A stretch of 62,542 nucleotides of DNA, filler included, from Collodictyon triciliatum (Eukaryota), in the NCBI GenBank assembly GCA_043381765.1. It is 9 parts of 9 records of this genome, joined end to end, with 100 filler letters (N's around TTAATTAATTAA, not from the genome) between each part and the next. Parts side by side here need not be neighbours in the genome. Positions count along the whole stretch, not along the records: positions 52,576 to 59,972 come from JBHJMP010003916.1; 8 more parts are not named here. One strand, written 5' to 3'. Below are positions 3,730 to 62,542 of this stretch, in pieces. The notes under the pieces are model-generated. The model saw nothing but the letters and a program-made list of their open reading frames with translations. It was not told where the DNA came from and searched no databases. Position 1 is the stretch's first letter, and every line of letters begins with the position of its first letter. A program made the position numbers and the translations under genes.

Positions 3730-6700
3730 ATGGACGATAAAGACGATCATCCCACATGCTCCGAGGCAAGCGACTGCGATCCGCTGGGCGAACTTCTTGG
3801 AGAAGGCAACCTATCTCTGTTTTCTACCCATTGTTTTTCTTACATTCATGTCATTCTTGTGCTTTTGTTGGACATCGCTTCCTTTTCACTCTGTTCCAAA
3901 GTCCTTCTTCCTTGGGCCTCACACCATCCTCTTTCCATCAGACGCCCCGCCCAACTGCTTCACTTGCGCACTCTGCTCCAAGGAACTCACCCGGCCGCAA
4001 TCTCTGGCCGGCTGCAAGCACTTAGTGTGCTGTGAATGCTTGCAAGGTAGCCTAGCCAAAGGCGCCACAAGACCCGACGATGATATCCAAAACACAGCCA
4101 CAGATACAAGAGCATGCACAAAAATAAGAGACAGACCCTCGCACAATCCAAACCGCGATATAGACTCCCTTGACGAGGAAAGCTCTGACTCCGACTTTGA
4201 TCCTTTGCCGCCTGTGCAGAATGCACCTGACTTGGACGATATATTCGGGTTGGTCGGGGCCATTGATCCAATCCTTCAAAGAGATGCTATGCTTAATCCG
4301 CTTGGTGATCAGGATGCCGATGCCAACATGGATTCAGATTCACATCCCATCGGGTTTTTCTCGCAACAAACTATGTCCAGCCAAGGCTCGGCCGCAAATG
4401 CAATATTGAGTCAGAACCAAGACGACGGATCGGGTCTTTTGTTTATCAGCGATTCGCTGGATGGCCGAGCCTCTGGTGAATGCGCTACCGTGGTCAAGGC
4501 GACTAAAAGTGTTATATGTCCCATTTGCTTCGTTGCTACTTATGTGGTGGCCGAAGATCTGTGTGATGTGTCTCCAGATTCCTTGGCTATGCTTCAGAGA
4601 GACTTTCCCATGGACGAGGACGCTGCCTTTGGGTTGGTGCCATCATCTGAAATCAATCCAAAAGCTGATGCAAGGTGCGGTTCTTATGATTGCACGAACC
4701 CAGCTGCATACTTTTGCGAAACGGAATGTGGATATTTGTGTCTTGAATGCGAAAAGCAACACAGAAGATTTACTTACACACGTCTGCATCATATTAAGTA
4801 TGTATTCACTTATTTCCTTTAAAACTTCACCGATGGGCTGTTCGGACATGTTTTTGATTAATTGTTCATTATTGCATGTAGCAGAGTATTTGAAATAGAA
4901 TTTCAAAGACTGAAAGTGATATATTGATCACACTCTGAAATTTTAACAGGGAAATAGGTGCTCTAAGGGAATCATCTGCAACAATGCACTCCAAAATGAA
5001 CTTGGAGCTATGTAATCTACACCCTTATTACCGAATTGAGTTTTTTTGCCTTACTTGTTCGAGCCAAAATCTTGCGTGTCTGAAATGCGTCGTTGAAACG
5101 CATCATTTACACAACATCGTTCCTCTGGATGTTGGCTTGTCGATGATAAAAGAGAAGCTATTAAACCAGATATCTCAAACATTTTCCATACGCGAAAAAC
5201 TTGAAGACATACAATTAACTAGCAAAGAAAAAGTCAAAAGGGTAAGTAAAGTTTATCTTGAGAAAGCACATTAATGAACAATTTCCATCCATTTAAATAA
5301 GTAACATGAATACCGCGTGGATACAGCTCCTGGAAACTGAGGAACAAGTTCTTGCCGCCATTCATCAAGCGTGTCAAAACTATGACACTAAATTGGAAAA
5401 AGTAGCCCAAGACCTCATCTCCTCGGTAACTTTTCTAGTTTCATTTTATTTTATTTTTTTTTATCATATAGCGAGTATTTGATAAACTCTTTAAATTTTA
5501 CAACAATCTATGATCTCTGAACAGTTTCCCATGCCTTACTTTGAACATAATTTTGGTATTTTAAAAATAGGCATTGTCTTACCAATTAGAAATATCCAAA
5601 AACATTCAATTGGATGTGGAAAATGTCAATAGTGCTGCCGCAGATGCAGAAGAAAAAGTCGCAATCAGCAAAGAGACCCTCGAAGCGGTTGAGCATACCA
5701 GTGACATCCAGATTCTAGCCTCAGCAAATGACTCGCTCGCCACTGTTATCACCCGGGTGAAAAGCATGACAGAGACAGAATGTCGGCAAATCAGATTTCG
5801 TCCAAACACCTCCATCACTCTATACCGCGAGAGTGGGAATCTAACGCAGAGGCCGAGTTTAGGGAATGTGTATCTATGGAATCAGAACAAAAAGAATGAC
5901 CAGTACTCTTTCCGACCTTTAGATCAGATGGGTCGAGCCAGGAAGGCTGTTGGGCGCTCTGGTGCGCGGCCACTTGAATTCGACCATGCGTGGGGGATTT
6001 GCGTCAACCCTCAAACTGGGAATCTATACGTAGCAGATCAGTTCAATCATCGAATCCAGGTGCTGAGCCCAGACCTAGAGTACCTGTTTCACTTTGGTAA
6101 ATACGGAACAGAGCCCGGCTTCTTCAATAATCCCATATCAGTGTGTGTCAGTCCCGACGGAGAGTTTGTGGTTGTGACGGACAACGGAAATCATCGCCTT
6201 CAGATATTTCTGCCTGATGGTGAGTTTCTGCGTGTGGAGAAGCTAGACCAAGCGACTGGGGAGCAGTTCAGAAACCCCATCAATGTCGCCATCAGCAAGG
6301 AGCCGGATGCATGCATGTATGTCACTGATACCCGAAACGAGAGGGTATACATCATGAGCCGCAACGGAGAGTTTAGAAAATCCTTTGGGAGAAAGACGGG
6401 CGGTGAGGATACGATTGGAATGGCCGAGGCCATCACCATCACGGAAAAGAATGAGGTTTGTGTTCTGGCTCGTGGAGGCAGTCGAATCGTAGTCTACGAC
6501 CTGGAAGGAGAATTCTTGCGGGCGCTAAGCATCGAACCTGTGCGAGGAAGAGTCAGTATGACATGGGGCCCGGAAGCGACTCTGTGGGTGGCAGACTCGG
6601 ACAACCATCAGGTTGTAGTGTACAGCGAATCTGGCGAGAAGCTCAAAGTCATCGGCTCGTCTGGCCACGGAGACAGCCAACTCACGAGTCCCATGGGCGT

Positions 6701-6767
6701 TGCTTTTGGGCCCAACGGATACTTTTATGTCTGCGACTACGGCAACAGCCGCATTCAAATCTTCTGA
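3730..6767 (+). CDS. TRIM-NHL-like E3 ligase: RING (split by long insert), B-box1, B-box2, coiled coil, NHL repeats
   Basis: RING ligands CALC..CKH..CCEC...CPIC; B-box CGSYDC..FCETECGYLCLECEKQH..HHI; B-box CNLH..FFCLTC..CLKC..HHLHNI; NHL repeats (LYVADQFNHRIQV, VVTDNGNHRLQIF, YVCDYGNSRIQIF) in the 5574-6767 exon. The start at 3730 requires a GC-AG first intron (3806-3941), which is phase compatible. Confidence 0.85.
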
Positions 6768-50626: not shown

Positions 50627-52475
50627 ATGAGCAGAGAAGCCGCTTTGGAAGCAGACTCTCCCGTTCTGCTTGGAAAGAGCAGCGCGCTTGACGAGGCCGA
50701 CACCCCCGACCGCTCGGACCACGACTCAGACGCAGAGGCCTCGGCAAGCCTGCTGCTTCGGCAGAATGCATCGTCAGACTCGCTGAGCTCCTTGGACGGG
50801 TCCGGTGACGAGTCTTCGGCCACGGCTGCGGGCATTGTGCACAAACCATACCGCAAGTCCGACGTCTTCAAGGAGTTCCAGACCATCATGGTCATCAAAG
50901 TCGGCTCTCACCTGCTTGCCGATCCCTCCTCGAACATGGATGTCCAGATTGCTCGTTTGGCCCCCGTGGTCGACGCCGTTGTGCAGTTGCGCCAGGCTGG
51001 AGTCCACGTCATCCTCGTCACATCCGGTGCATTGTCCATGGGCGCATCAAGGTCATCTGTGATGATTGTGATGATTGTGATGATTGTGATGATTGTGATG
51101 ATTGTGATGGCTGTGCTGATTGTGATTGTGATGATTGTGATGATTGTGATGATTGTGATGGTTGTGCTGATTGTGCTGATTGTGATGATTGTGATGGTTG
51201 TGATGGTTGTGATGGTTGTGATGGTTGTGATGATTGTGATTGCGCTGATTGTGATTATGATGACTATGATGACTATGATAGTTGTGGTGGTTGTGCTGAT
51301 TGTGCTGATTGTCATGATTGTGATGGTTGTGATGATTGTGATTGCGCTGATTGTGATTGTGATGACTATGATGACTATGATAGTTGTGGTGATTGTGATG
51401 ATTGTGATGGTTGTGATGGTTGTGATGATTGTTGTGGTGATTGTGGTGATTGTGATGATTGTAATGATTGTGATGGTTGTGATGGCTGTGATGGTTGTGA
51501 TGATTGTGATGATTGTGATGATTGTGATGGTTGTGATGGTTGTGATGATTGTGATGATTGTGATGATTGTGATGATTGTGATGATTGTGATGATTGTGAT
51601 GGTTGTGATGATTGTAGTGATTGTGGTGATTGTGATGATTGTGATGATTGTGATGATTGTGATGATTGTGATGGTTGTGATGGTTGTGATGGTTGTGATG
51701 ATTGTGGTGATTGTGATGATTGTGATGATTGTGATGATTGTGATGATTGTGGTGATTGTGATGGCTGTGCTGATTGTGGTGATTGTGATGATTGTGATGG
51801 TTGTGATGGCTGTGCTGATTGTGATGATTGTGATGGTTGTGATGGTTGTGATGATTGTTGTGGTGATTGTGGTGATTGTGGTGATTGTGATGATTGTGAT
51901 GATTGTGATGATTGTGATGGTTGTGATGGTTGTGATGATTGTTGTGGTGACTGTAAAGATGCCGGTGATATTTATAAAAAAAGGTTGATGTTGCAGGTTG
52001 CAGCTGAAAGCACGACCAAAATATCTTCCGCAGCAGCAGGCCGCATGTGCAGTGGGACAAAGCCGCCTGATGCGAGTATACGACGATCTTTTTTCGATGG
52101 CCGGAAATCACCCCATCGCACAGGTGAAGGCCTTATTCGTTCCTTCGCAAAAGAAAGAGACATAGAAAACGACAGAAAAAAAAAGAAGGCAACATGATGA
52201 ATGCATCATCATATATTGTCGTATCACATTCACGGCTATATATGCATTTCAATAAACAAATACGCACAAATAAGTAGGTTCTCATCACACGCGAGGACCT
52301 CGGCCAGCGCCACCGATATCTGAACGCACTCAACACCTTCAAGGAGCTCCTCTCGTACAACATCATCCCGATAGTGAACGAGAACGACTCTGTAGGGGTG
52401 TGCGGGCTGCGCTTCGAGGACAACGACACGCTCGCTGCAGGCGTCTCGAACCTTGTGGAGGCGGACTACCTCGTC
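50627..52475 (+). CDS. proB: Glutamate 5-kinase (ProB/Pro1 family), at least 3 exons, 3' truncated
   Basis: [84 protein letters not shown]. Confidence 0.92.
51058..51955. repeat. About 900-bp degenerate (GTGATGATT)n triplet-based minisatellite inside intron 1 of glutamate 5-kinase
   Basis: Lies between donor GT (about 51052) and acceptor CAG (about 51996). Confidence 0.9.
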
Positions 52476-52577
52476 NNNNNNNNNNNNNNNNNNNNNNNNN
52501 NNNNNNNNNNNNNNNNNNNTTAATTAATTAANNNNNNNNNNNNNNNNNNNNNNNNNNNNNNNNNNNNNNNNNNNNAT

Positions 52578-54959
52578 GTAAATGGTCCTAGTAATTTTAA
52601 TGCTTATACTCCCAATTATTCATTAATATTAACGCCTACTTTATCGTGCACATTTGATCCTACGGGCACAGCTTCTGCATTATTCGGTATTGCATGTAAT
52701 ACAAATAATGGAGTTTATGTTATATGTAGTAATACTTCAACATCAGGACATCAGCGATTATTTGTTTCAGAACCTAATAATTTAACTACATGGACGGCTA
52801 TAACTAATACTAATATAAATATAAATAATTTACGAAATATTGTTTTTGGTAATAATATTTGGGCGTGTCTTTCACAGTCAGATACAACGCGTACATTATT
52901 TTATACTACTGATATTACAGCAAAGACAGGATGGACACAAGTTGCAAATTCGGCGCCTTGGACAACAACGCGAATATTAAATCGTTTAAAATTTATCAAT
53001 GGACAATTTGTAACTGTTGATACGGGTTCAAGATATCGAGTTTCAACAGATTGTGTGGTTTGGTCTTTTGAAATTTCGATGACGGCGACCGCTTATAATA
53101 TGTCCGATATAACATATTCTCCCGAATTAAGAAGATATGTTGTGGTTGCTAATAATGCTATTTTATATTATGATGGTACAACATTACCAACAACAGGAAG
53201 TAATATGTTTACTCCTGTTATAACAACTTCAAATTTAGCAGCGGTTGAGTGGTCTTCAAAATTGGGTATGTTTTCTACTAGTACAAATTCAGCTAATGGT
53301 TCATTTTTAATATCAAAAGATGGTATAAATTGGACAAGTCCGGGTACTTTACCATGGATAAATAGAACTATAACATGGGTTAATGATTTTGGCGGGTTTT
53401 TTATGGCTTCACCTCAACAAAACACGAATAATCTTGCAATTAGCAGAGATGGTATAAATTGGCAAACTATAGCATTATCATTTACATCTTTTGGAGCTTC
53501 AAATTATTATAATCCTGTAACTAAAATGTTTGTATTTTCAGGTACTGATATAGCACATTATCGAGATGTCAACACTTTATTTTCTTCTTATGTTGATACT
53601 GATTTAATTTATAATACTTTTAATTCTAATGTTAGATTTGACGATATTATTGAATACAAAACACAATTAATAACAACAGAAACCGCAAACACACATTATA
53701 CAGTATCAGTATTAAATAAACCAAATATTGACGTAAACACAACAAATGCAAACTTTAATATATATATGCAAGGTACATCATTTAATGGAAGATTAGGAAC
53801 AACTTATAAAATATATAAATATGCTTCATCTAATAATAATGTTAGAATTCATGGTTATGAAACAACTAATATTATATCACCATTAGGCAATATATCAGGA
53901 TTCAATGCCCAAAGTTCCCCACAAATATATAATTTAATACCGGCGGGATATTTTGGTAATTTTGAATTAATACGTGTTTCTGATAGTGGTAATGGTACAT
54001 GGTTAATAACTAATTTAAATGTTTATGATAGTACAGGAACAAAACGAGAAATCGGAAGTTTATCAATTGCTAATAATTTAAGTATTGATGGGTCATTTTC
54101 AACTAATGGAATAAATATAAATAGAAATTTTATATGGACACCATCAGCCGGAGTTGTACAAACATTAATATATGATATTGGAACTCATGGATCATATGTT
54201 CAAATTAATGCAGTAAATGACAATCAGACAGTGTTTATAACTTTACCAAGTTTAAATATAACAGGATATCAAAACAAGACATTTTTATTAACTTTTGATT
54301 TAGTATTAGATAATGCAAGGACTCAAACATTTGGTGTATTTTCTTATCAATCGCCGACAGTTAGATTATCAACGGGAAACAGACCGGCACAAGAATATAC
54401 AGGAGAATTAGTATATGAGCCTAGAAGTTGGAGACTTGACACACCAGGAGGGGCACTAACAAGAAGAGATTATAGAGGAGGTCCAATATCATTTTTAGTT
54501 AGTACAAGTTCTAATTATACATGGTATCGACCTATAACAAATGATGACGATTTAATAGAAGATGTAGGATCGATAAATTGTATTTTTTCAAATCCTGATT
54601 ATTATATAAATGTTAATAATTCTAATCAAGGGATAACATTTTATAAATATAATGAAGTAATAGGGGCACCATCAGGAACAAATGTTATTTTAAATTTTGA
54701 AACTTTAACATTTGCCGATAATAAATTTACTATATATTTTACTATGACGTCGGGAAATTCTACCGGTAATTTTAATATAAGAAATAATATGTCATCAGGT
54801 GATATAGTTAATATATATTCTCAAGGATCAGTAACATCTTTAGTGGTAGGAGGTAGTACCAATAGAGATGGTCAATCATTTTTAAGATGTACATATTATC
54901 ATAGTAGATTCGGAAACCCTCAAAATGTATGGGTAATACATGTACTAAACTCAATATAA
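52578..54959 (+). CDS. Viral fibre/receptor-binding-like protein, at least 793 aa, 5' truncated
   Basis: The frame is open from the contig edge (52578), upstream of the listed GTG. Asp-box-like repeats VSTDCVVW, ISKDGINW, ISRDGINW; Asn/Thr/Ser-rich beta content. Confidence 0.6.
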   Translation, partial: VNGPSNFNAYTPNYSLILTPTLSCTFDPTGTASALFGIACNTNNGVYVICSNTSTSGHQRLFVSEPNNLTTWTAITNTNININNLRNIVFGNNIWACLSQSDTTRTLFYTTDITAKTGWTQVANSAPWTTTRILNRLKFINGQFVTVDTGSRYRVSTDCVVWSFEISMTATAYNMSDITYSPELRRYVVVANNAILYYDGTTLPTTGSNMFTPVITTSNLAAVEWSSKLGMFSTSTNSANGSFLISKDGINWTSPGTLPWINRTITWVNDFGGFFMASPQQNTNNLAISRDGINWQTIALSFTSFGASNYYNPVTKMFVFSGTDIAHYRDVNTLFSSYVDTDLIYNTFNSNVRFDDIIEYKTQLITTETANTHYTVSVLNKPNIDVNTTNANFNIYMQGTSFNGRLGTTYKIYKYASSNNNVRIHGYETTNIISPLGNISGFNAQSSPQIYNLIPAGYFGNFELIRVSDSGNGTWLITNLNVYDSTGTKREIGSLSIANNLSIDGSFSTNGININRNFIWTPSAGVVQTLIYDIGTHGSYVQINAVNDNQTVFITLPSLNITGYQNKTFLLTFDLVLDNARTQTFGVFSYQSPTVRLSTGNRPAQEYTGELVYEPRSWRLDTPGGALTRRDYRGGPISFLVSTSSNYTWYRPITNDDDLIEDVGSINCIFSNPDYYINVNNSNQGITFYKYNEVIGAPSGTNVILNFETLTFADNKFTIYFTMTSGNSTGNFNIRNNMSSGDIVNIYSQGSVTSLVVGGSTNRDGQSFLRCTYYHSRFGNPQNVWVIHVLNSI

Positions 54960-54968
54960 ATATTATGA

Positions 54969-55000
54969 TTTTTAAATAATACATATATATTATTTAAAAA
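54969..55000. terminator. 13-bp-stem hairpin between convergent viral genes
   Basis: TTTTTAAATAATA-catata-TATTATTTAAAAA. Confidence 0.55.
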
Positions 55001-56160
55001 ATATTAGAACTATAAGACAATCTTAAAGGTTGTTTTTTATTATTAAAATCTTTTGATACATTACTTATAAATTTAGATTTATTATTATTATACATATCAA
55101 AACCACCATTATATATAAATTGTTTAGCATAAGATAAACTTTTAAATATTTTTGTTTTTGCCCCTTCTTTTACAATATAATTTAATCCTACCAATTTAAT
55201 ATTAATTTTTTTACCATTGACGATATAATCGCCTAAATCATTATTTACATATGAACTTATTTTTAATGGATTTTGTGTATTTTCAACTTTATATATATTT
55301 TCTGTCCCTGTTATTAAATTAGCATTTTTAGTCGGTTTATTTTGATCGCTTACATTTACTTTTTTTAATGGATATATACCTAATTTAAAATAATTTCTTA
55401 CTGTTTCATAATGATTAGCACTGTCTCCGTCTTTTAAATCATTTATTATTAAATCAAATTTATCAGATATCATTTTTGTATCATTAGATGATAACCTTAT
55501 TAAATCATTTTCTAAATCTTCCACTGTTGTATAACGTTCATTTACTCGTTTTTCATTAAATCTATACCCTGATGATAAATTATTATATAATTCTAAATTT
55601 ATTCTTTCTATAAGTTTATTTAATTCTGTTATATTATCTTGTACTAGTTCTGAATTGGTAAATAAATCTCTCATTCCTGGTTCTTCTTTAATTTCAGCAG
55701 GTCCTGTGTTTTCTTCAGCGCTTATAGCTTCATCTAATGTTCTTACTTCTCGACCTTCATATTCTAATTGATCTAAATTATAAATTTCTGGATTTTGTAA
55801 TAAATAACCAAAAATTATACTTTTTAAAGTTTTGTCTCTTAAACTTGTGTTTGAAGTAAATTGTTTAATGATAGCTGAAGCTTGAGATCTAAGAGGTATT
55901 AAACTTGTATATTGACCTAAAAATGATTTATATTTAGTAAAATAACGTTTAGTCGTCGCGTCTGGTTTTTCATTTGCTATAAATTCTGGAGGGGTAAATT
56001 TGTCTTCTATTCCTAAAATTTCCTGTATATCGTTAATTACATTTTCCATCACAACATTCGCGTTAATATATGAGTTTGAAACTTTACTTGGTTTAACATT
56101 CTGTTCAAATGATTGAACAACTTTATTTAATATATTTTCAAAATATTGTCGTAATACCAT
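54994..56160 (-). CDS. Viral hypothetical protein (388 aa)
   Basis: Long ORF in very AT-rich DNA with an ATG preceded by TATAATATAT; no family recognised. Confidence 0.8.
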   Translation of the reverse strand: MVLRQYFENILNKVVQSFEQNVKPSKVSNSYINANVVMENVINDIQEILGIEDKFTPPEFIANEKPDATTKRYFTKYKSFLGQYTSLIPLRSQASAIIKQFTSNTSLRDKTLKSIIFGYLLQNPEIYNLDQLEYEGREVRTLDEAISAEENTGPAEIKEEPGMRDLFTNSELVQDNITELNKLIERINLELYNNLSSGYRFNEKRVNERYTTVEDLENDLIRLSSNDTKMISDKFDLIINDLKDGDSANHYETVRNYFKLGIYPLKKVNVSDQNKPTKNANLITGTENIYKVENTQNPLKISSYVNNDLGDYIVNGKKINIKLVGLNYIVKEGAKTKIFKSLSYAKQFIYNGGFDMYNNNKSKFISNVSKDFNNKKQPLRLSYSSNIF

Positions 56161-56205
56161 ATATATTATATATCTAAAAAAATTTTATATATATATAATT
56201 ATATA

Positions 56206-56577
56206 ATGATAGGAGATATAATGAGAAAAAGCGCATTTGGACGAATTGGTAATATAAGAAAAGTTACCACACAAGCAGGAGGCATAATATCAAATCTTTC
56301 ATCAAAAGCAAAAGAAGGAATCCAAAAATTTGAAGATATAGCAAATAAAGTAGATAAAATAACAGGAGGAGCGGCAGGTGATGTTTTAAGAAGTTCAGGA
56401 ACTATTCAACAATATCAATCATATAAAGCACCTGTTATGACAGGATTAAAAGCGGCAGAATTATTCGGGTCATCATTAAAACGATTAGGAGGTGAAAAAT
56501 TAACACAAAGCAATTTAAAAAAATCATGGGATGAAGCAAAAGAAGGTATAAATATAGGTAAGTCAATAATAAAATAA
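56206..56577 (+). CDS. Small basic Gly/Lys-rich viral protein upstream of the MCP (possible core/structural protein)
   Basis: 123-aa ORF, TATATAATG start context, co-oriented with and adjacent to the MCP. Confidence 0.7.
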   Translation: MIGDIMRKSAFGRIGNIRKVTTQAGGIISNLSSKAKEGIQKFEDIANKVDKITGGAAGDVLRSSGTIQQYQSYKAPVMTGLKAAELFGSSLKRLGGEKLTQSNLKKSWDEAKEGINIGKSIIK

Positions 56578-56622
56578 ATATATAGATTAAATAATTTTTT
56601 TATATTACTATTATATATATAT

Positions 56623-58167
56623 ATGTCAGTCGCAGATCAAAACAAATTTTTTAAGATTAAATCATTTGATAATATCATTGATAGAAAAACCGTAAAACTT
56701 AGTCCTAACAATGGATCTGTATTTTCCACAACATCAGGTATTGATAGAATAGTATTTAACATTCCAGTAAGTAATAATTATTGTCTAGACACAAGAACAA
56801 TATATATACATTTTGATGCATCGCTTGACTTAGGCACGGGCGCGACTTGGGCAAATAATGACATTTATTTTAATAACAGTATAGAATCAATTATTAATCA
56901 AGTTTTAATAAGAAGATCAACAGGAGGCGAAATTTTAGAAGATATAAGAAATTATAATTATTGTGAATCTCTATTAATGAATTATGTATCAGAAACACAC
57001 AATAGAACTGTTGGGCGTATGTGTATGGGTATTGGTGATGCAAATTTTAGAATATCACTACATCCACAAAGCGGAACTAGTACATCTTCTGTAGCTCGTG
57101 GATATACTATTCCTTTAAGACTATCAGGAATATCTAATGTTGATACTTATATTCCCCTTCAGATTTTAGATAATGTATGCGCTTTCCAAGTAGAAATTAT
57201 TTTAGCTAGACCAAATGAAGCAATATCCGCATATAATATATCAGCGGTCGCAAGCGTAGGAAATACCGTTGAAAATGCAACATATACACTTAGAAATGTT
57301 TTTATGAGTTATGATATAGTACAAATGGACCAGTTATATATGGATGGTTTAAATAGCGCTTTATTATCAGGTCAACCTTTAGAAATTCCATATAAAACAT
57401 GGAAATCATCAACATTTAATATTCCATCTACAGGTACTAGTTTTTCATTTAATTTAAATGATTCTTTAAAAAGTATAAATGCTTTGTTTATTGGATTTTG
57501 GAAAACCGAAGAATTAAAATTAAATATGGCAGGAAAAGATCGTTTACACTTCCCTACTAATTTAACTTCATGGCAATTACAATTAGGTAATCAATATGTT
57601 CCACAACAACCATGTAGTACTGTTAATACATCTCAATGTTTCACAGAACTATGTAAAGCATTAGGTGAACTAACATTTAATGAATATTCTTCTGTTTTTG
57701 ATTTTAATGGTGAAACATATTCACAAGCAGAATACGGCAACACATTTGCACTAAAATCAGGTTTTACCGCAGCGACGCCCTCAGCAGTTACAAAAAATGG
57801 AGTAAGTATATTTGCAGCATACCCAACAGATGGTGTTAAAATGAATGATGGTTTAACACAAGTCGTTAAACAAAGTACAGGTGCCGCATTAGCAGCAGGT
57901 GATTTGGTAACAGGCGGAGTAAGATATTTAAGAGAAGCATGCAACGCGAATCCTTCAAATTTCTGTATTGGCATTAATCTTAAAAAATTATTATCATCAC
58001 ATAATGGTGAAATTGTCGGGAGTTCTTTATTAGATGGAAATGGTATTATGACATTAAGACTCGAATTTTCGGCAAATCCAGGAGATACATATAATATGAT
58101 TGTATTTACTCAACATGATGCAGTATTAGAAGTAAATGCAAACCAACAAATATTTAAATCTCAATAA
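56623..58167 (+). CDS. Major capsid protein, double jelly-roll type (Polinton-like virus-like)
   Basis: 514 aa, beta-strand-rich. N-terminal KLSPNNGSVFS..IVFNIP..LDTRTIYIHFD, SIINQVLIR..EILEDIRNYN, YTIPL, LKSINALF, WQLQLGNQYVPQQP, FCIGINL and C-terminal FTQHDAVLEV resemble PLV MCP motif order; recognised by eye. Confidence 0.78.
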   Translation: MSVADQNKFFKIKSFDNIIDRKTVKLSPNNGSVFSTTSGIDRIVFNIPVSNNYCLDTRTIYIHFDASLDLGTGATWANNDIYFNNSIESIINQVLIRRSTGGEILEDIRNYNYCESLLMNYVSETHNRTVGRMCMGIGDANFRISLHPQSGTSTSSVARGYTIPLRLSGISNVDTYIPLQILDNVCAFQVEIILARPNEAISAYNISAVASVGNTVENATYTLRNVFMSYDIVQMDQLYMDGLNSALLSGQPLEIPYKTWKSSTFNIPSTGTSFSFNLNDSLKSINALFIGFWKTEELKLNMAGKDRLHFPTNLTSWQLQLGNQYVPQQPCSTVNTSQCFTELCKALGELTFNEYSSVFDFNGETYSQAEYGNTFALKSGFTAATPSAVTKNGVSIFAAYPTDGVKMNDGLTQVVKQSTGAALAAGDLVTGGVRYLREACNANPSNFCIGINLKKLLSSHNGEIVGSSLLDGNGIMTLRLEFSANPGDTYNMIVFTQHDAVLEVNANQQIFKSQ

Positions 58168-58194
58168 TTAAAATATAAATATTTATATTTTAAT
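58167..58194. terminator. Perfect 28-bp palindrome immediately after the MCP stop
   Basis: ATTAAAATATAAAT|ATTTATATTTTAAT. Confidence 0.65.
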
Positions 58195-58257
58195 CAAATT
58201 ATTTTTTATTTATTGGAATTTGTGAAAAATCGGGAACGCTTGATTCTGTGTCAAATT

Positions 58258-58359
58258 CTACAGATGACCACAACATGAAGATTTTTTAAAATGTTTTAAT
58301 ATTCTTTCAATTACTAAACCAGCCATTAATATTATTGATACTATGCTCGCAGGATCCAT
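58258..58359 (-). CDS. Small viral membrane peptide (33 aa; possibly a frameshifted 53-aa gene)
   Basis: MDPASIVSIILMAGLVIERILKHFKKSSCCGHL*, with the ATG in the same TATATATAATG context as its neighbours; not in the ORF track. Confidence 0.55.
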   Translation of the reverse strand: MDPASIVSIILMAGLVIERILKHFKKSSCCGHL

Positions 58360-58390
58360 TATATATATATTTATATATTATGTTTATATA

Positions 58391-58639
58391 TTAAAAATCA
58401 TCTAATATAAATTGATCTAAATAATGATAAACCCAAAAACCTATATATTTTGGATCATCAATATGTTTATATTTATTAAAATTTATTCTTTGTTTATCTT
58501 TTTTACCAAATGATAAAACCTGATATGTTAAAGTATCATTATAAATATGATGAACACTATATGGTTTATGTTTTGGATAGCTATGTTTTTTTACTAAATA
58601 TGTATTATCTTTTACAGCTATTAATTTTTCTTTTAACAT
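58391..58639 (-). CDS. Divergent paralog of the adjacent DUF5754/Tlr6F-like small viral protein
   Basis: Shares N-Y-L..K.Y.V..SFG.K..IDDP.Y.GFW.Y.YL with 58776-59072. Confidence 0.7.
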   Translation of the reverse strand: MLKEKLIAVKDNTYLVKKHSYPKHKPYSVHHIYNDTLTYQVLSFGKKDKQRINFNKYKHIDDPKYIGFWVYHYLDQFILDDF

Positions 58640-58775
58640 ATATATATATATGATATTAAAAAAAATATGTAATATAATAAATAATATACTAACATTATAT
58701 ATAAAATTTTGTTATTTTATTATTATTGTTATAATGATATTAATATATATGATAATTAGTTATATAATAAAGTTA

Positions 58776-59072
58776 CTACCATAAATAATTATAAGCCCAA
58801 AATCCCGCATAATTTGGATTATCTATATTATCATTCTTATGTCTATCTCTATATAATTTTCTTCTTTGTTTATCATTATGATCTTTACTTTTATAATATC
58901 CTATTTTATCTTTATAATGTTCATATCTTTTATCACCGAATGATGTAATGTAACGTTTAACAAATTCATTATCTTTTAATACAATATAAACATCATATTT
59001 TTTATTTTCTCTTTTAGATGGTTCTAATAAATATTTGTTACCTTTTACAATTATTATTTTTTGAAATGACAT
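58776..59072 (-). CDS. Small viral protein, DUF5754/Tlr6F-like
   Basis: The motif SKRENKKYDV..FGDKRYEHY..DHNDKQRRKLYRDRH..AGFWAYNYLW is typical of a small family in giant viruses and PLVs. The family name is recalled, not searched. Confidence 0.7.
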   Translation of the reverse strand: MSFQKIIIVKGNKYLLEPSKRENKKYDVYIVLKDNEFVKRYITSFGDKRYEHYKDKIGYYKSKDHNDKQRRKLYRDRHKNDNIDNPNYAGFWAYNYLW

Positions 59073-59079
59073 ATATATA

Positions 59080-59502
59080 TTATACTATTCTATTTAAATT
59101 TATATTATCAACATTTATATTAATTTGATCTTTTAATTTTATAAATTTAATGCTACATTCTATTTTATCAAGATTATTTTTTATTCTATAATACTCTTTA
59201 TCATATTCTTTATGTTTAATTCTAAAATTAATATCATTTTTATATTTTTCTTTTAATCTATTTAATATATATTCTTTATTTTTTTCATAATATGAATTAT
59301 GATATTCTTTAACTTCGTTCTTTTTTTTATAATAATATTGTTTACTATATTCTTTATGTTTGTTTCTAAAATTAATATCATTTTTATATTTTTCATTATG
59401 ATATTTTTTTTGATAATCACATACTTTATCTTTATTTTTTTCATAATATTCTTTATACTTTTCTTTATTATTTTCATAATATTCTTTTTTATAGGTTGAC
59501 AT
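59080..59502 (-). CDS. Viral Lys/Tyr/Glu-rich helical repeat protein
   Basis: KEYYENNKEK / KEYYEKNKDK repeats and a duplicated EKYKNDINFR.KHKEY unit. Confidence 0.7.
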   Translation of the reverse strand: MSTYKKEYYENNKEKYKEYYEKNKDKVCDYQKKYHNEKYKNDINFRNKHKEYSKQYYYKKKNEVKEYHNSYYEKNKEYILNRLKEKYKNDINFRIKHKEYDKEYYRIKNNLDKIECSIKFIKLKDQININVDNINLNRIV

Positions 59503-59538
59503 ATAATAATAATATAATTATTATATATTTTTAAAAAA

Positions 59539-59892
59539 TTAAATAAAATCATATAAATAAAACCCGATAATTTTTCCCGCTTCTTCCTCTGTTATATTTG
59601 AGTCCGAAGTATCATCTATATTTACTAATATATTATTTTTTGTTATTTTTATAGCGTCACGTGTTGATCTAAAACCAGCATTTTTATATAATACTGTTAA
59701 TTTATATTGTCCTCTTTGTCCTGTTTTCCACTGTTCCTCAAGCATGTTTTCTAGTTGTCGAGTTAATTGATTTCTAGTCATTCCCCCATTATTTATTTTA
59801 AAAGCATTTTGTCTAAGCTTTTTTCCGTTTGAGTTTTTTATTTCTGTTATTTTTGTTGCCTCGTTCCATTTAAATATTTTTGGTTGTGACAT
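59539..59892 (-). CDS. Viral hypothetical protein (117 aa)
   Basis: ORF with TATATATAATG start context; no family recognised. Confidence 0.7.
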   Translation of the reverse strand: MSQPKIFKWNEATKITEIKNSNGKKLRQNAFKINNGGMTRNQLTRQLENMLEEQWKTGQRGQYKLTVLYKNAGFRSTRDAIKITKNNILVNIDDTSDSNITEEEAGKIIGFYLYDFI

Positions 59893-60072
59893 TATATATA
59901 TAATTTATATAATAAATAAAGCTTTAAGTCATTTTAATTTTAATTTTAAATTATTTTATATTTAATATATTANNNNNNNNNNNNNNNNNNNNNNNNNNNN
60001 NNNNNNNNNNNNNNNNTTAATTAATTAANNNNNNNNNNNNNNNNNNNNNNNNNNNNNNNNNNNNNNNNNNNN

Positions 60073-60152
<80 letters not shown>

Positions 60153-62407: not shown

Positions 62408-62542
62408 GTTTTGTCTCTCTTTATAACTCTCACTATTATTATTTTTTTTTTTGTCTTTGTCTTTGTCTTTGTCTTTGTCTTTGTCTTTGTCTTTGTCTTT
62501 GTCTTTGTCTTTGTCTTTGTCTTTGTCTTTGTCTTTGTTTTT

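Follow-up and report, generated by a model that had tools for sequence, protein, structure and literature searches.

The likeliest reading of the two long palindromes (hairpins 1 and 2) of the viral contig studied here, and one held with moderate confidence, is that they mark transcript ends in both directions in a polinton-like virus (PLV), in the way described by the 'hairpin rule' of giant viruses. As either palindrome takes up the entire 31-34-nt spacer separating a pair of convergent stop codons, transcripts of both genes would end in a common stem-loop. By analogy with the hairpin rule, it would be the shape of this RNA hairpin, rather than its sequence, that is recognised for cleavage and polyadenylation, and such ends would keep transcription units from running on into one another as antisense. 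Together with TATATA boxes abutting the ATG, the hairpin ends would make up a virus-type gene punctuation, which a co-infecting giant virus would most plausibly read with its own machinery. Hairpin-type gene ends of PLVs were not found in the literature searched, where the reports cover giant viruses, Sputnik and transpovirons.

The viral contig and its genes

The window, that is the whole stretch of DNA analysed (62,542 nt), consists of nine joined contigs of the Collodictyon triciliatum assembly GCA_043381765.1. One of them (52576-59972, JBHJMP010003916.1; 7397 nt, 26% GC) represents a portion of a PLV and encodes a double jelly-roll capsid protein and Tlr6f/DUF5754 proteins (Table 1), as the preliminary description had it when it spoke of a viral contig with a PLV-type capsid. 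PLVs are recognised by a double jelly-roll major capsid protein (MCP) alongside a penton protein, an A32-type packaging ATPase and Tlr6f, on genomes of some 14-40 kb. The contig is incomplete at both ends and covers 7.4 kb, in which Tlr6f/DUF5754 occurs twice. Within these 7.4 kb, no penton or packaging ATPase gene was recognised with Pfam, nor were genes seen for an RNA polymerase, an RNase III or a poly(A) polymerase. The contigs of its relatives measure 17 kb or less.

Table 1. Genes, start box and hairpins of the viral contig (positions in the window; a dot marks features without a strand)
Feature	Position	Strand	Remarks
ORF1	52578-54959	+	793 aa or more; runs off the contig at its 5' end
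Hairpin 1	54969-55000	.	perfect A/T-only stem of 13 bp, loop of 6 nt
388-aa gene	54994-56160	-	no assigned function; convergent with ORF1
123-aa gene	56206-56577	+	immediately 5' of the capsid gene, also in L002, L004, L005 and L008
(TA)n box	56609-56622	+	example of a box abutting an ATG (capsid gene); from the sequence
MCP gene	56623-58167	+	514 aa, double jelly-roll (AlphaFold2 and Foldseek)
Hairpin 2	58167-58194	.	perfect A/T-only palindrome of 28 nt (14+14)
Small membrane-protein gene	58199-58359	-	53 aa in L011; adjoins the capsid gene in 8 relatives
82-aa gene	58391-58639	-	Tlr6f/DUF5754 paralogue (BLASTP between ORFs and alignment)
98-aa gene	58776-59072	-	Tlr6f/DUF5754 protein (Pfam PF19058, E 2.3e-4, under the gathering score)
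140-aa gene	59080-59502	-	Lys/Tyr/Glu-rich; internal tandem repeat of 144 nt
Hairpin 3	59501-59526	-	stem of 10 bp, loop of 6 nt; 12 bp with G-U pairs on minus-strand RNA
117-aa gene	59539-59892	-	no assigned function; heads the leftward gene run

The AlphaFold2 model of the MCP (mean pLDDT 71, pTM 0.72) matches the capsid proteins of iridovirus, PBCV-1, mavirus and Sputnik in a Foldseek search of the PDB (E 1e-16 to 1e-12), and it is also matched by Foldseek against BFVD. All 22 homologues of the MCP are unnamed; those numbered P0002-P0007 show 73-89% identity. Relatives of the capsid were found neither in IMG/VR viral contigs nor in prokaryote genome contigs, and the loci of the relatives used below (L001-L011 series) come solely from a metagenome scan. 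As for the 98-aa protein, many of its 50 homologues carry PF19058. The Tlr6f and DUF5754 families are the same, as stated in the part of PMC12220804 available; the gene is widespread among PLVs.

Outside these markers, ORF1 possibly encodes a fibre or beta-propeller-like virion protein, a lead only, as its Atlas feature score to phage beta-propeller clusters (0.80) is under the reliable range. The 388-aa protein matches no Pfam family and has no Atlas match; it has a homologue within a 1015-aa protein of L007. The 82-aa ORF had been taken for the convergent partner of the capsid gene, but comparison with the relatives replaces it with the small membrane-protein gene, which in the window has lost one nucleotide of a C run and is thereby frameshifted and truncated at 58258-58260. 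A structure at 58216-58259, considered as a signal ending a 33-aa ORF, was rejected because the relatives show that this stretch is coding and the ORF frameshifted in the window.

Palindromes between convergent genes

The three structures of the preliminary description are present where it placed them, with the stem and loop sizes it gave, and the long ones do lie at both convergent junctions, reaching from stop codon to stop codon. Hairpin 1 occupies the 34 nt that separate the ORF1 stop codon (54957-54959) from that of the 388-aa gene (54994-54996), the latter lying inside its right arm; on minus-strand RNA it can alternatively be drawn with 14 bp and a loop of 4 nt. The first base of hairpin 2 is the last base of the TAA of the capsid gene, and its end lies 4 nt ahead of the convergent stop of the small membrane-protein gene (58199-58201; spacer of 31 nt); as RNA it would have 12-14 bp and a loop of 0-4 nt. 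Hairpin 3 begins 13 nt past the stop codon of the 117-aa gene, its other end falls on the 140-aa gene's ATG, and its minus-strand loop is TATATT. It may have the same end role for the 117-aa gene, or equally be part of the signal that starts the following gene. The hairpins thus start 0-13 nt downstream of a stop codon and adjoin four of the nine gene ends in the window, or five if the marginal hairpin 3 is counted; the ends of the 123-, 82-, 98- and 140-aa genes have none. These three are the sole perfect stems of at least 9 bp (loop up to 10 nt) in the 7397 nt of the contig, and all are intergenic.

Chance is the simplest explanation for palindromes in low-complexity spacers of 90% A+T. The spacers of the contig are indeed 84-94% A+T, and some stem of at least 13 bp arose in 337 of 5000 shuffles of these spacers alone. 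Nevertheless, two regions with such stems were obtained in only 6 of the 5000 spacer shuffles and in none of 1000 shuffles by 200-nt blocks. A stem of this length appeared in 3.5% of the latter and in 2.2% of 1000 dinucleotide shuffles of the whole contig. Taken individually in the spacer shuffles, hairpin 2 was reached 3 times in 5000, hairpin 1 23 times (0.009 in the junction scoring) and hairpin 3 335 times (0.081 in the junction scoring). By these controls hairpins 1 and 2 are above chance and hairpin 3 is marginal. Since hairpin 2 is also conserved in relatives and palindromes recur at the convergent junctions of distant ones, chance is for the most part refuted as the origin of hairpins 1 and 2 and would be a very improbable account of them.

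Hairpin 2 is kept in L001, L009, L010 and L011, whose capsids are 64-100% identical to that of the window (best matching segments). It belongs to the most conserved 60-nt stretch between the window and L001 (0.95, against 0.59-0.93 elsewhere). The only change that preserves pairing is one two-sided A-T to T-A swap, a single event among five sequences that 94 of 500 shuffles match. Of its 14 pairs, 12 are the same in every relative, so that the sequence is conserved besides the shape, and a DNA-binding site would fit too. This opens an alternative at the level of DNA, in which the palindromes, as duplex or cruciform, would bind dimeric proteins or mark sites of replication, recombination or packaging, and would lie between convergent genes merely because these spacers hold no start signals. 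A spacerless, perfect palindrome such as hairpin 2 suits this view, and so do pairs that are all Watson-Crick on both strands. In endogenous virophages and PLVs, moreover, palindromes at the termini have been described and given a putative role in replication, in the portion of 10.64898/2026.07.28.741278 available.

The other junctions of the lineage speak against this alternative. Distant relatives (36-45% capsid identity) bear palindromes of unrelated sequence at their own convergent junctions, abutting the stop codons, as at junction 359/467 of L005 (p = 0.008) and junction sTM/122 of L007 (0 of 1000 shuffles). Over the lineage of the window, four of five independent convergent junctions reach p < 0.01 and none of seven divergent ones p < 0.05 (Fisher p = 0.010); among tandem junctions, p <= 0.01 is reached at 4 of 26. 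The palindrome never coincides with a break in gene order, which is unbroken there in all relatives compared. Finally, the stems of hairpins 1-3 have no sequence in common, as expected if they are recognised by shape, and a single protein would not fit all of them. Three giant-virus-like fragments (assigned by Pfam), scored in the same way as a positive control, gave 7 of 8 convergent, 8 of 30 tandem and 1 of 9 divergent junctions, a profile that matches that of the PLV lineage, high at convergent junctions and low at divergent ones.

The picture is less sharp elsewhere. Across 80 other viral contigs with Tlr6f, divergent (19 of 148) and tandem (108 of 665) junctions too are enriched in inverted repeats, and in the tandem spacers they are nearer the next start in 65 cases and nearer the stop in 40. 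That PLV-size contigs have inverted repeats in all kinds of spacers favors action on DNA, and the same is true of an even split in strand stability. The sense strand was the more stable in three of the six one-way hairpins and the antisense in the other three, in a comparison used as a test of action on RNA. All in all, a role at the level of DNA seems unlikely to us, and the end-signal reading is preferred.

The predicted RNA folds have energies of -7.4 (plus strand) and -8.8 kcal/mol (minus strand) for hairpin 1, -6.8 and -9.2 kcal/mol for hairpin 2, and -8.2 (sense) and -5.5 kcal/mol (antisense) for hairpin 3. Such energies make for weak stems, which is a point against the end-signal reading. 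A ranking by folding energy was dropped as a detector, as A/T-only stems are not picked out by it: the contig's top 20 windows of 44 nt by stability include none of the three, a further point against that reading.

Comparison with known hairpin signals

The sizes published for the hairpin rule are, in the parts of PMC8557863 available, a stem of at least 13 bp and a loop of at most 5 nt in Mimivirus, and a stem of at least 10 bp and a loop of at most 10 nt in Pithovirus. Hairpins 1-3 are A/T-rich and fall within these published stem and loop ranges. As in Mimivirus and Megavirus, they are A/T-rich palindromes placed right past the stop codons, at a frequency above chance and above that of spacers away from 3' ends (four of five convergent against none of seven divergent), with a sequence proper to each site: hairpins 1-3 and the palindromes of distant relatives are unrelated to one another. 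Unlike the giant-virus signal, which is present at a large majority of genes, they occur at about half of the gene ends (5 of 9 in the window, including the marginal hairpin 3) of an element of roughly the 20-kb class. The likeness to the hairpin rule put forward in the preliminary description therefore stands as regards non-randomness, position at gene 3' ends, stem and loop sizes and placement in relatives. Its tie to Mimiviridae is not supported, as the same part of PMC8557863 reports the rule in Pithovirus and Marseilleviridae as well.

Small elements that depend on giant viruses offer a closer parallel. Sputnik carries hairpin signals at 16 genes (PMC6723459, in the portion available) and the transpovirons of Mimiviridae carry terminator hairpins (PMC7031253, likewise). 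Like the PLV, these elements, which bear the hairpin signal and the late promoter of their host virus, are small, Sputnik with a double jelly-roll capsid, and have start and end signals of helper type. They differ in that the capsid of the window belongs to an unnamed Tlr6f-carrying lineage without the Mimivirus promoter box AAAATTGA. The bidirectional intrinsic terminators of bacteria and phages also place a single hairpin between convergent genes and serve both strands with it, but their stems are G+C-rich and flanked by A and T tracts, which is not the case here. A scan for bacterial-type terminators found none at gene ends and two sites within coding sequence, where 1.4 were expected.

Gene starts and a possible helper virus

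TATATA lies at most 14 nt upstream of the ATG in seven of the eight window genes having upstream sequence, and abuts the ATG in 17 of 23 genes of the branch to which the window belongs. The canonical nuclear TATA box lies about 30 nt upstream of where the transcript starts, and a box 6-14 nt upstream of the ATG cannot qualify as one. As TATATA abuts the ATG and leaves almost no leader, it would act as an initiator and not as a nuclear TATA box. These starts resemble the late motif of ASFV and pacmanvirus rather than a Mimiviridae signal, though this is a likeness only, and the Mimiviridae early box AAAATTGA has no match in the viral contig. A Mimiviridae-type helper, which had been proposed for this element, is thus not supported, all the less so as the hairpin rule extends beyond that family. 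The virophage-like lifestyle proposed along with it is at most hinted at by the gene ends, and none of the observations speaks to the suggested part in host defence. Nor did the suggested search for Nucleocytoviricota markers reveal any in the other contigs of the window, which carry ordinary eukaryotic domains.

It could then be asked whether the PLV needs a helper at all. An autonomous PLV would use the hairpins as real transcript ends or barriers to read-through for the machinery of the host, or for other machinery foreign to giant viruses; the likeness to the hairpin rule would be convergent and uninformative on a virophage lifestyle. The lack of giant-virus genes in the window's other contigs suits this view, as do the occurrence of the element in runs of 11 studies and the many PLVs within the same protist assembly. 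Moreover, TATATA directly 5' of the ATG is common, being found at 40% or more of the genes in 33 of the 80 Tlr6f-bearing contigs, and need not indicate one helper. Yet the position of the box is incompatible with a canonical nuclear TATA box, the junction profile is shared with giant-virus-like fragments, and A/T hairpins are not known as cellular polyadenylation signals, going by the accessible part of PMC4402537, which describes enzymes of hairpin cleavage and polyadenylation including a viral RNase III-like one. PLV expression that depends on giant viruses is also documented, at least in the portions of 10.1101/2022.07.28.501842 and 10.1101/2025.10.09.676808 available. Expression without a helper seems rather improbable, and transcription by a co-infecting giant virus would be the more plausible reading.

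In the same two sources, the PLVs PgVV-14T/Gezel-14T and those of Tetraselmis have giant-virus-dependent or giant-virus-triggered expression and promoter boxes of helper type. PgVV shares its promoter through AAAATTGA, whereas the lineage of the window has TATATA starts and hairpin ends; the word 'hairpin' does not occur in the texts of the two sources. Pacmanvirus and its transpoviron, as far as the part of PMC11788076 available goes, have the ASFV-like late TATATA at the initiation region near the start codon, as in the window, but the gene ends of pacmanvirus carry a T-rich linear motif (WWTTTATTTTTTAWW) and not hairpins. Since those ends are linear and the ends in the window are hairpins, the window joins the start motif of one known type with the end signal of another.

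The sister branch adds a further contrast, as its genes begin 14 nt past a TTCT box (12 of 23). It is conceivable, and we put it forward only tentatively, that one PLV capsid lineage bears a complete giant-virus-style punctuation that is swapped between sub-lineages, with TATATA or TTCT starts and common A/T hairpin ends defined by shape only. If so, PLVs would adapt the way their genes start to one helper giant virus or another and retain a common hairpin-type end signal, and the helper of the window's branch would be a virus with a TATATA late promoter that obeys the hairpin rule, a combination that was not found described in the literature searched. No link between TATATA-type starts and hairpins was seen across the 80 other Tlr6f-bearing contigs.

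Whether a PLV replicates autonomously or parasitizes giant viruses bears on who transcribes it, and gene punctuation would be a cheap clue to the transcriber, readable from sequence. Hairpin ends and ATG-abutting boxes lead to a testable prediction for this PLV: poly(A) sites inside both palindromes, on both strands, and expression solely with a helper. TATATA-ATG starts plus A/T hairpin ends also provide a search image for the putative helper virus.

Among public data, 12% of the words sampled from the stretch occur in one metatranscriptome and 5% in one possible RNA run, shares that are not evidence of expression. In whole or in part, the stretch was found in 20 sequencing runs from 11 studies of freshwater, sediment and aquaculture.

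The viral fragment and its gene ends

The 62,542-base window consists of nine contigs with N spacers in between. The viral contig (52576-59972, 7397 nt) has a G+C content of 26%, against 35-42% in the neighbouring contigs. Its 514-aa protein has 22 homologues, all of them unnamed, and a sequence search of the PDB returned no match. An AlphaFold2 model of this protein (mean pLDDT 71, pTM 0.72) was matched by Foldseek to the double jelly-roll capsids of iridovirus, PBCV-1, mavirus and Sputnik, with E values of 1e-16 to 1e-12, and to viral capsid models in BFVD. The 98-aa gene encodes a protein of the Tlr6f/DUF5754 type, Tlr6f being named as widespread in polinton-like viruses (PLVs) in PMC12220804, and the 82-aa gene is a paralogue of the 98-aa gene. 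Given the capsid fold and the Tlr6f/DUF5754 genes, the contig is a piece of a PLV, cut at both ends. The 140-aa gene, rich in Lys, Tyr and Glu, is made up of a 144-nt tandem repeat (59177-59487, 2.2 copies, 75% match).

Genes and hairpins of the viral contig, in window coordinates
Feature	Position	Strand or orientation
ORF1, 5' end open	ends 54959	plus
Hairpin 1	54969-55000	
388-aa gene	54994-56160	minus
123-aa gene	56206-56577	plus
514-aa gene (major capsid)	56623-58167	plus
Hairpin 2	58167-58194	
Small membrane-protein gene	58199-58359	minus
82-aa gene	58391-58639	in leftward run
98-aa gene (Tlr6f/DUF5754)	58776-59072	in leftward run
140-aa gene	59080-59502	in leftward run
Hairpin 3	59501-59526	
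117-aa gene	59539-59892	in leftward run

The small membrane-protein gene occupies part of an apparent spacer of 223 nt on the 3' side of the capsid gene, and it is also conserved among the metagenomic relatives (8 of 11). In the window its frame is shortened from 53 to 33 aa by the loss of one base from a run of C; the intact 53-aa frame is present in a near-identical metagenome locus (L011), and the frameshift is either an assembly error or a mutation that truly inactivates the gene. With the stop of the intact frame at 58199-58201, the real convergent spacer behind the capsid gene measures 31 nt. In distant relatives the two genes share a strand, the small gene coming after the capsid gene, and no hairpin separates them.

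The preliminary description had claimed three hairpins in this contig. All of them are in place, and they are its only perfect stems of at least 9 bp (loop up to 10). Hairpin 1 begins 10 nt past the ORF1 stop and its right arm includes the 388-aa gene's stop codon, and hairpin 2, a 28-nt palindrome, runs from the final base of the capsid stop to 4 nt short of the small-gene stop. Both of these long palindromes are made of A and T only, and each fills the spacer between convergent stop codons. Hairpin 3 lies 13 nt past the stop of the 117-aa gene, its other end falling on the ATG of the 140-aa gene. Roughly half of the gene ends in the viral contig carry no hairpin, and a scan of all gene ends there found no bacterial-type terminators.

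Hairpins at convergent junctions

Hairpins 1 and 2 are non-random and conserved, and palindromes of unrelated sequence are placed likewise in distant relatives and in giant-virus-like fragments. A stem of at least 13 pairs appeared in 2.2% of 1000 whole-contig dinucleotide shuffles and in 3.5% of 1000 shuffles by 200-nt blocks, two such stems never occurring together in the latter (0/1000). Since the spacers are 84-94% A+T, each was also shuffled by itself in 5000 trials: hairpin 1 was matched in 23, hairpin 2 in 3 and hairpin 3 in 335, and two regions with stems of at least 13 arose in 6. The enrichment over composition-matched shuffles proposed as a check in the preliminary description thus holds for hairpins 1 and 2, which are rarely matched, hairpin 3 being marginal. 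Folded as RNA, hairpins 1 and 2 reach -6.8 to -9.2 kcal/mol, with z-scores of -2.0 to -4.2. Nevertheless, the 20 most stable 44-nt segments of the viral contig, ranked by raw energy, include none of the A/T stems, which counts against the finding. Nineteen of them are annotated coding sequence; the twentieth (58216-58259) had looked like the end signal of a 33-aa ORF, a reading that was rejected, as the stretch is coding once the small-gene frame is corrected. The strand-asymmetry test, comparing sense with antisense stability in 6 one-way hairpins, ended 3 to 3.

Searched with the capsid alignment, IMG/VR and prokaryote genomes gave no hits, and metagenomes gave 11 loci. The palindrome of hairpin 2 is kept in all four near relatives that cover the capsid 3' end (L001, L009, L010 and L011), and the window differs from them by one two-sided swap of A-T to T-A; three of the four lack the outermost pair. 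This covariation is a single event that 94 of 500 shuffles match, and it is therefore weak on its own. When the window's copy is compared with L001, the 60-nt segment holding hairpin 2 is the most conserved (0.95 identity versus 0.59-0.93 elsewhere, coding sequence included). In hairpin 2 the sequence itself is conserved besides the pairing, and a DNA-binding site would also fit. Distant relatives, with 36-45% capsid identity, have unrelated palindromes at their own convergent junctions: one of 14 pairs with 1 mismatch spans stop codon to stop codon between the 359- and 467-aa genes of L005, and another of 14 pairs with 1 mismatch lies between the small membrane-protein gene and a 122-aa gene in L007.

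The tie between hairpins and convergent junctions, claimed for this contig beforehand, extends to its lineage. Using curated gene models and 1000 shuffles per junction, four of the five independent convergent junctions gave p<0.01; the fifth, between the 96- and 194-aa genes of L010, gave p=0.97 and has a doubtful gene model. None of the 7 divergent junctions reached p<0.05 (minimum 0.063; convergent versus divergent, Fisher p=0.010), and p<=0.01 was obtained for 4 of 26 tandem rows, among which homologous rows are not de-duplicated. A wider set of 80 IMG/VR loci was gathered with a Tlr6f alignment and comprised 879 junctions (automatic ORFs of at least 60 aa, 100 shuffles each), where p<=0.01 was found at 18/66 convergent, 108/665 tandem and 19/148 divergent junctions (convergent versus divergent, Fisher p=0.018). 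Inverted repeats exceed shuffles there in every kind of spacer, very unevenly among contigs, 25 of the 80 having no signal and some others having it at half of their junctions. The repeats of tandem spacers are nearer the next start in 65 cases and nearer the stop in 40, so not every inverted repeat in a PLV spacer is a gene-end signal. As a positive control, three loci were taken from large contigs with giant-virus-like genes: L014 (DNA polymerase X, kinase, NUDIX) and the mutually related L064 and L076 (D5/C962R primase-helicase, SNF2 helicase, SbcC-like ATPase). Their junctions (convergent 7/8, tandem 8/30, divergent 1/9) show the same profile as the lineage of the window.

Start-proximal boxes and tandem hairpins

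A (TA)n run abuts the ATG of every gene of the viral contig that has upstream sequence. TATATA stands at -14 to -6 in 17/23 genes from the viral contig and near relatives, versus 0/23 in distant relatives, where TTCT occurs at -22 to -10 in 12/23 genes, with 8 placed exactly at -14 (background 8-9% per 16-nt window). Within one capsid lineage, two branches have different start-proximal boxes, without overlap. According to PMC11788076, TATATA at the initiation region serves pacmanvirus and its transpoviron as an ASFV-like late promoter; the gene ends of pacmanvirus are there given a linear T-rich motif without hairpins, whereas the lineage of the window has hairpins. The Mimiviridae early box AAAATTGA, used also by PgVV according to a preprint (10.1101/2022.07.28.501842), has 0 matches in the viral contig. 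In 33 of the 80 Tlr6f-bearing loci, at least 40% of the genes have TATATA no more than 14 nt ahead of the ATG, and no link was found between such starts and hairpin frequency.

Two tandem hairpins of L005 (5767-5799 and 6044-6075) hold the TTTTC or TTTCTC box of the next gene inside their loop and, like hairpin 3, end at or near the next gene's ATG. Hairpin 3 has TATATT in its loop and abuts the ATG of the 140-aa gene. In view of this loop, the parallel with L005 and its marginal result in shuffles, hairpin 3 could belong to a start signal; such tandem-spacer hairpins may contribute to the start signal, instead of or besides acting as an end signal.

A candidate reader of the signals

The most likely role of the palindromes at convergent junctions is to form RNA stem-loops at which transcripts from either side would end. 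By analogy with the hairpin rule of giant viruses, in which A/T-rich hairpins after genes signal polyadenylation, the hairpin would be cut by a viral RNase III-like enzyme and receive its tail from a viral poly(A) polymerase, two activities described in PMC4402537. Other papers quote the rule for Pithovirus and Marseilleviridae (PMC8557863) and for Sputnik (PMC6723459), and mention terminator hairpins in transpovirons (PMC7031253). As no genes for transcription were seen in the PLV fragment, and as its start boxes leave room for hardly any leader, the most plausible reader of the PLV signals is a helper giant virus, which is the least secure step of this proposal. The hairpin type of signal is already known, as is, as an idea, the dependence of PLVs on giant viruses. 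The accessible main texts on hairpins or promoter motifs in PLVs describe promoter sharing and hairpins that are terminal or linked to replication, and no gene-end hairpins were found in them. Hairpin-type gene ends in a PLV give a testable prediction.

A check of the open frames in the window's other contigs for giant-virus markers found none, the domains there being ordinary eukaryotic ones (WD40, NHL, RFC-like AAA, HMG box and ankyrin). NHL-repeat beta-propeller proteins are encoded by long open frames at 5571-6767 (plus) and 11512-13203 (minus), on separate eukaryotic contigs. In the neighbouring eukaryotic contig a 9-nt unit, TGTGATGAT, is present in 97 tandem copies (51058-51942), with a G+T-rich strand, a GC skew near 0.9 and long open frames through both strands. 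The last contig starts with a run of 77 A (60073-60149), and 15.5 copies of TTTGTC close the window (62450-62542).
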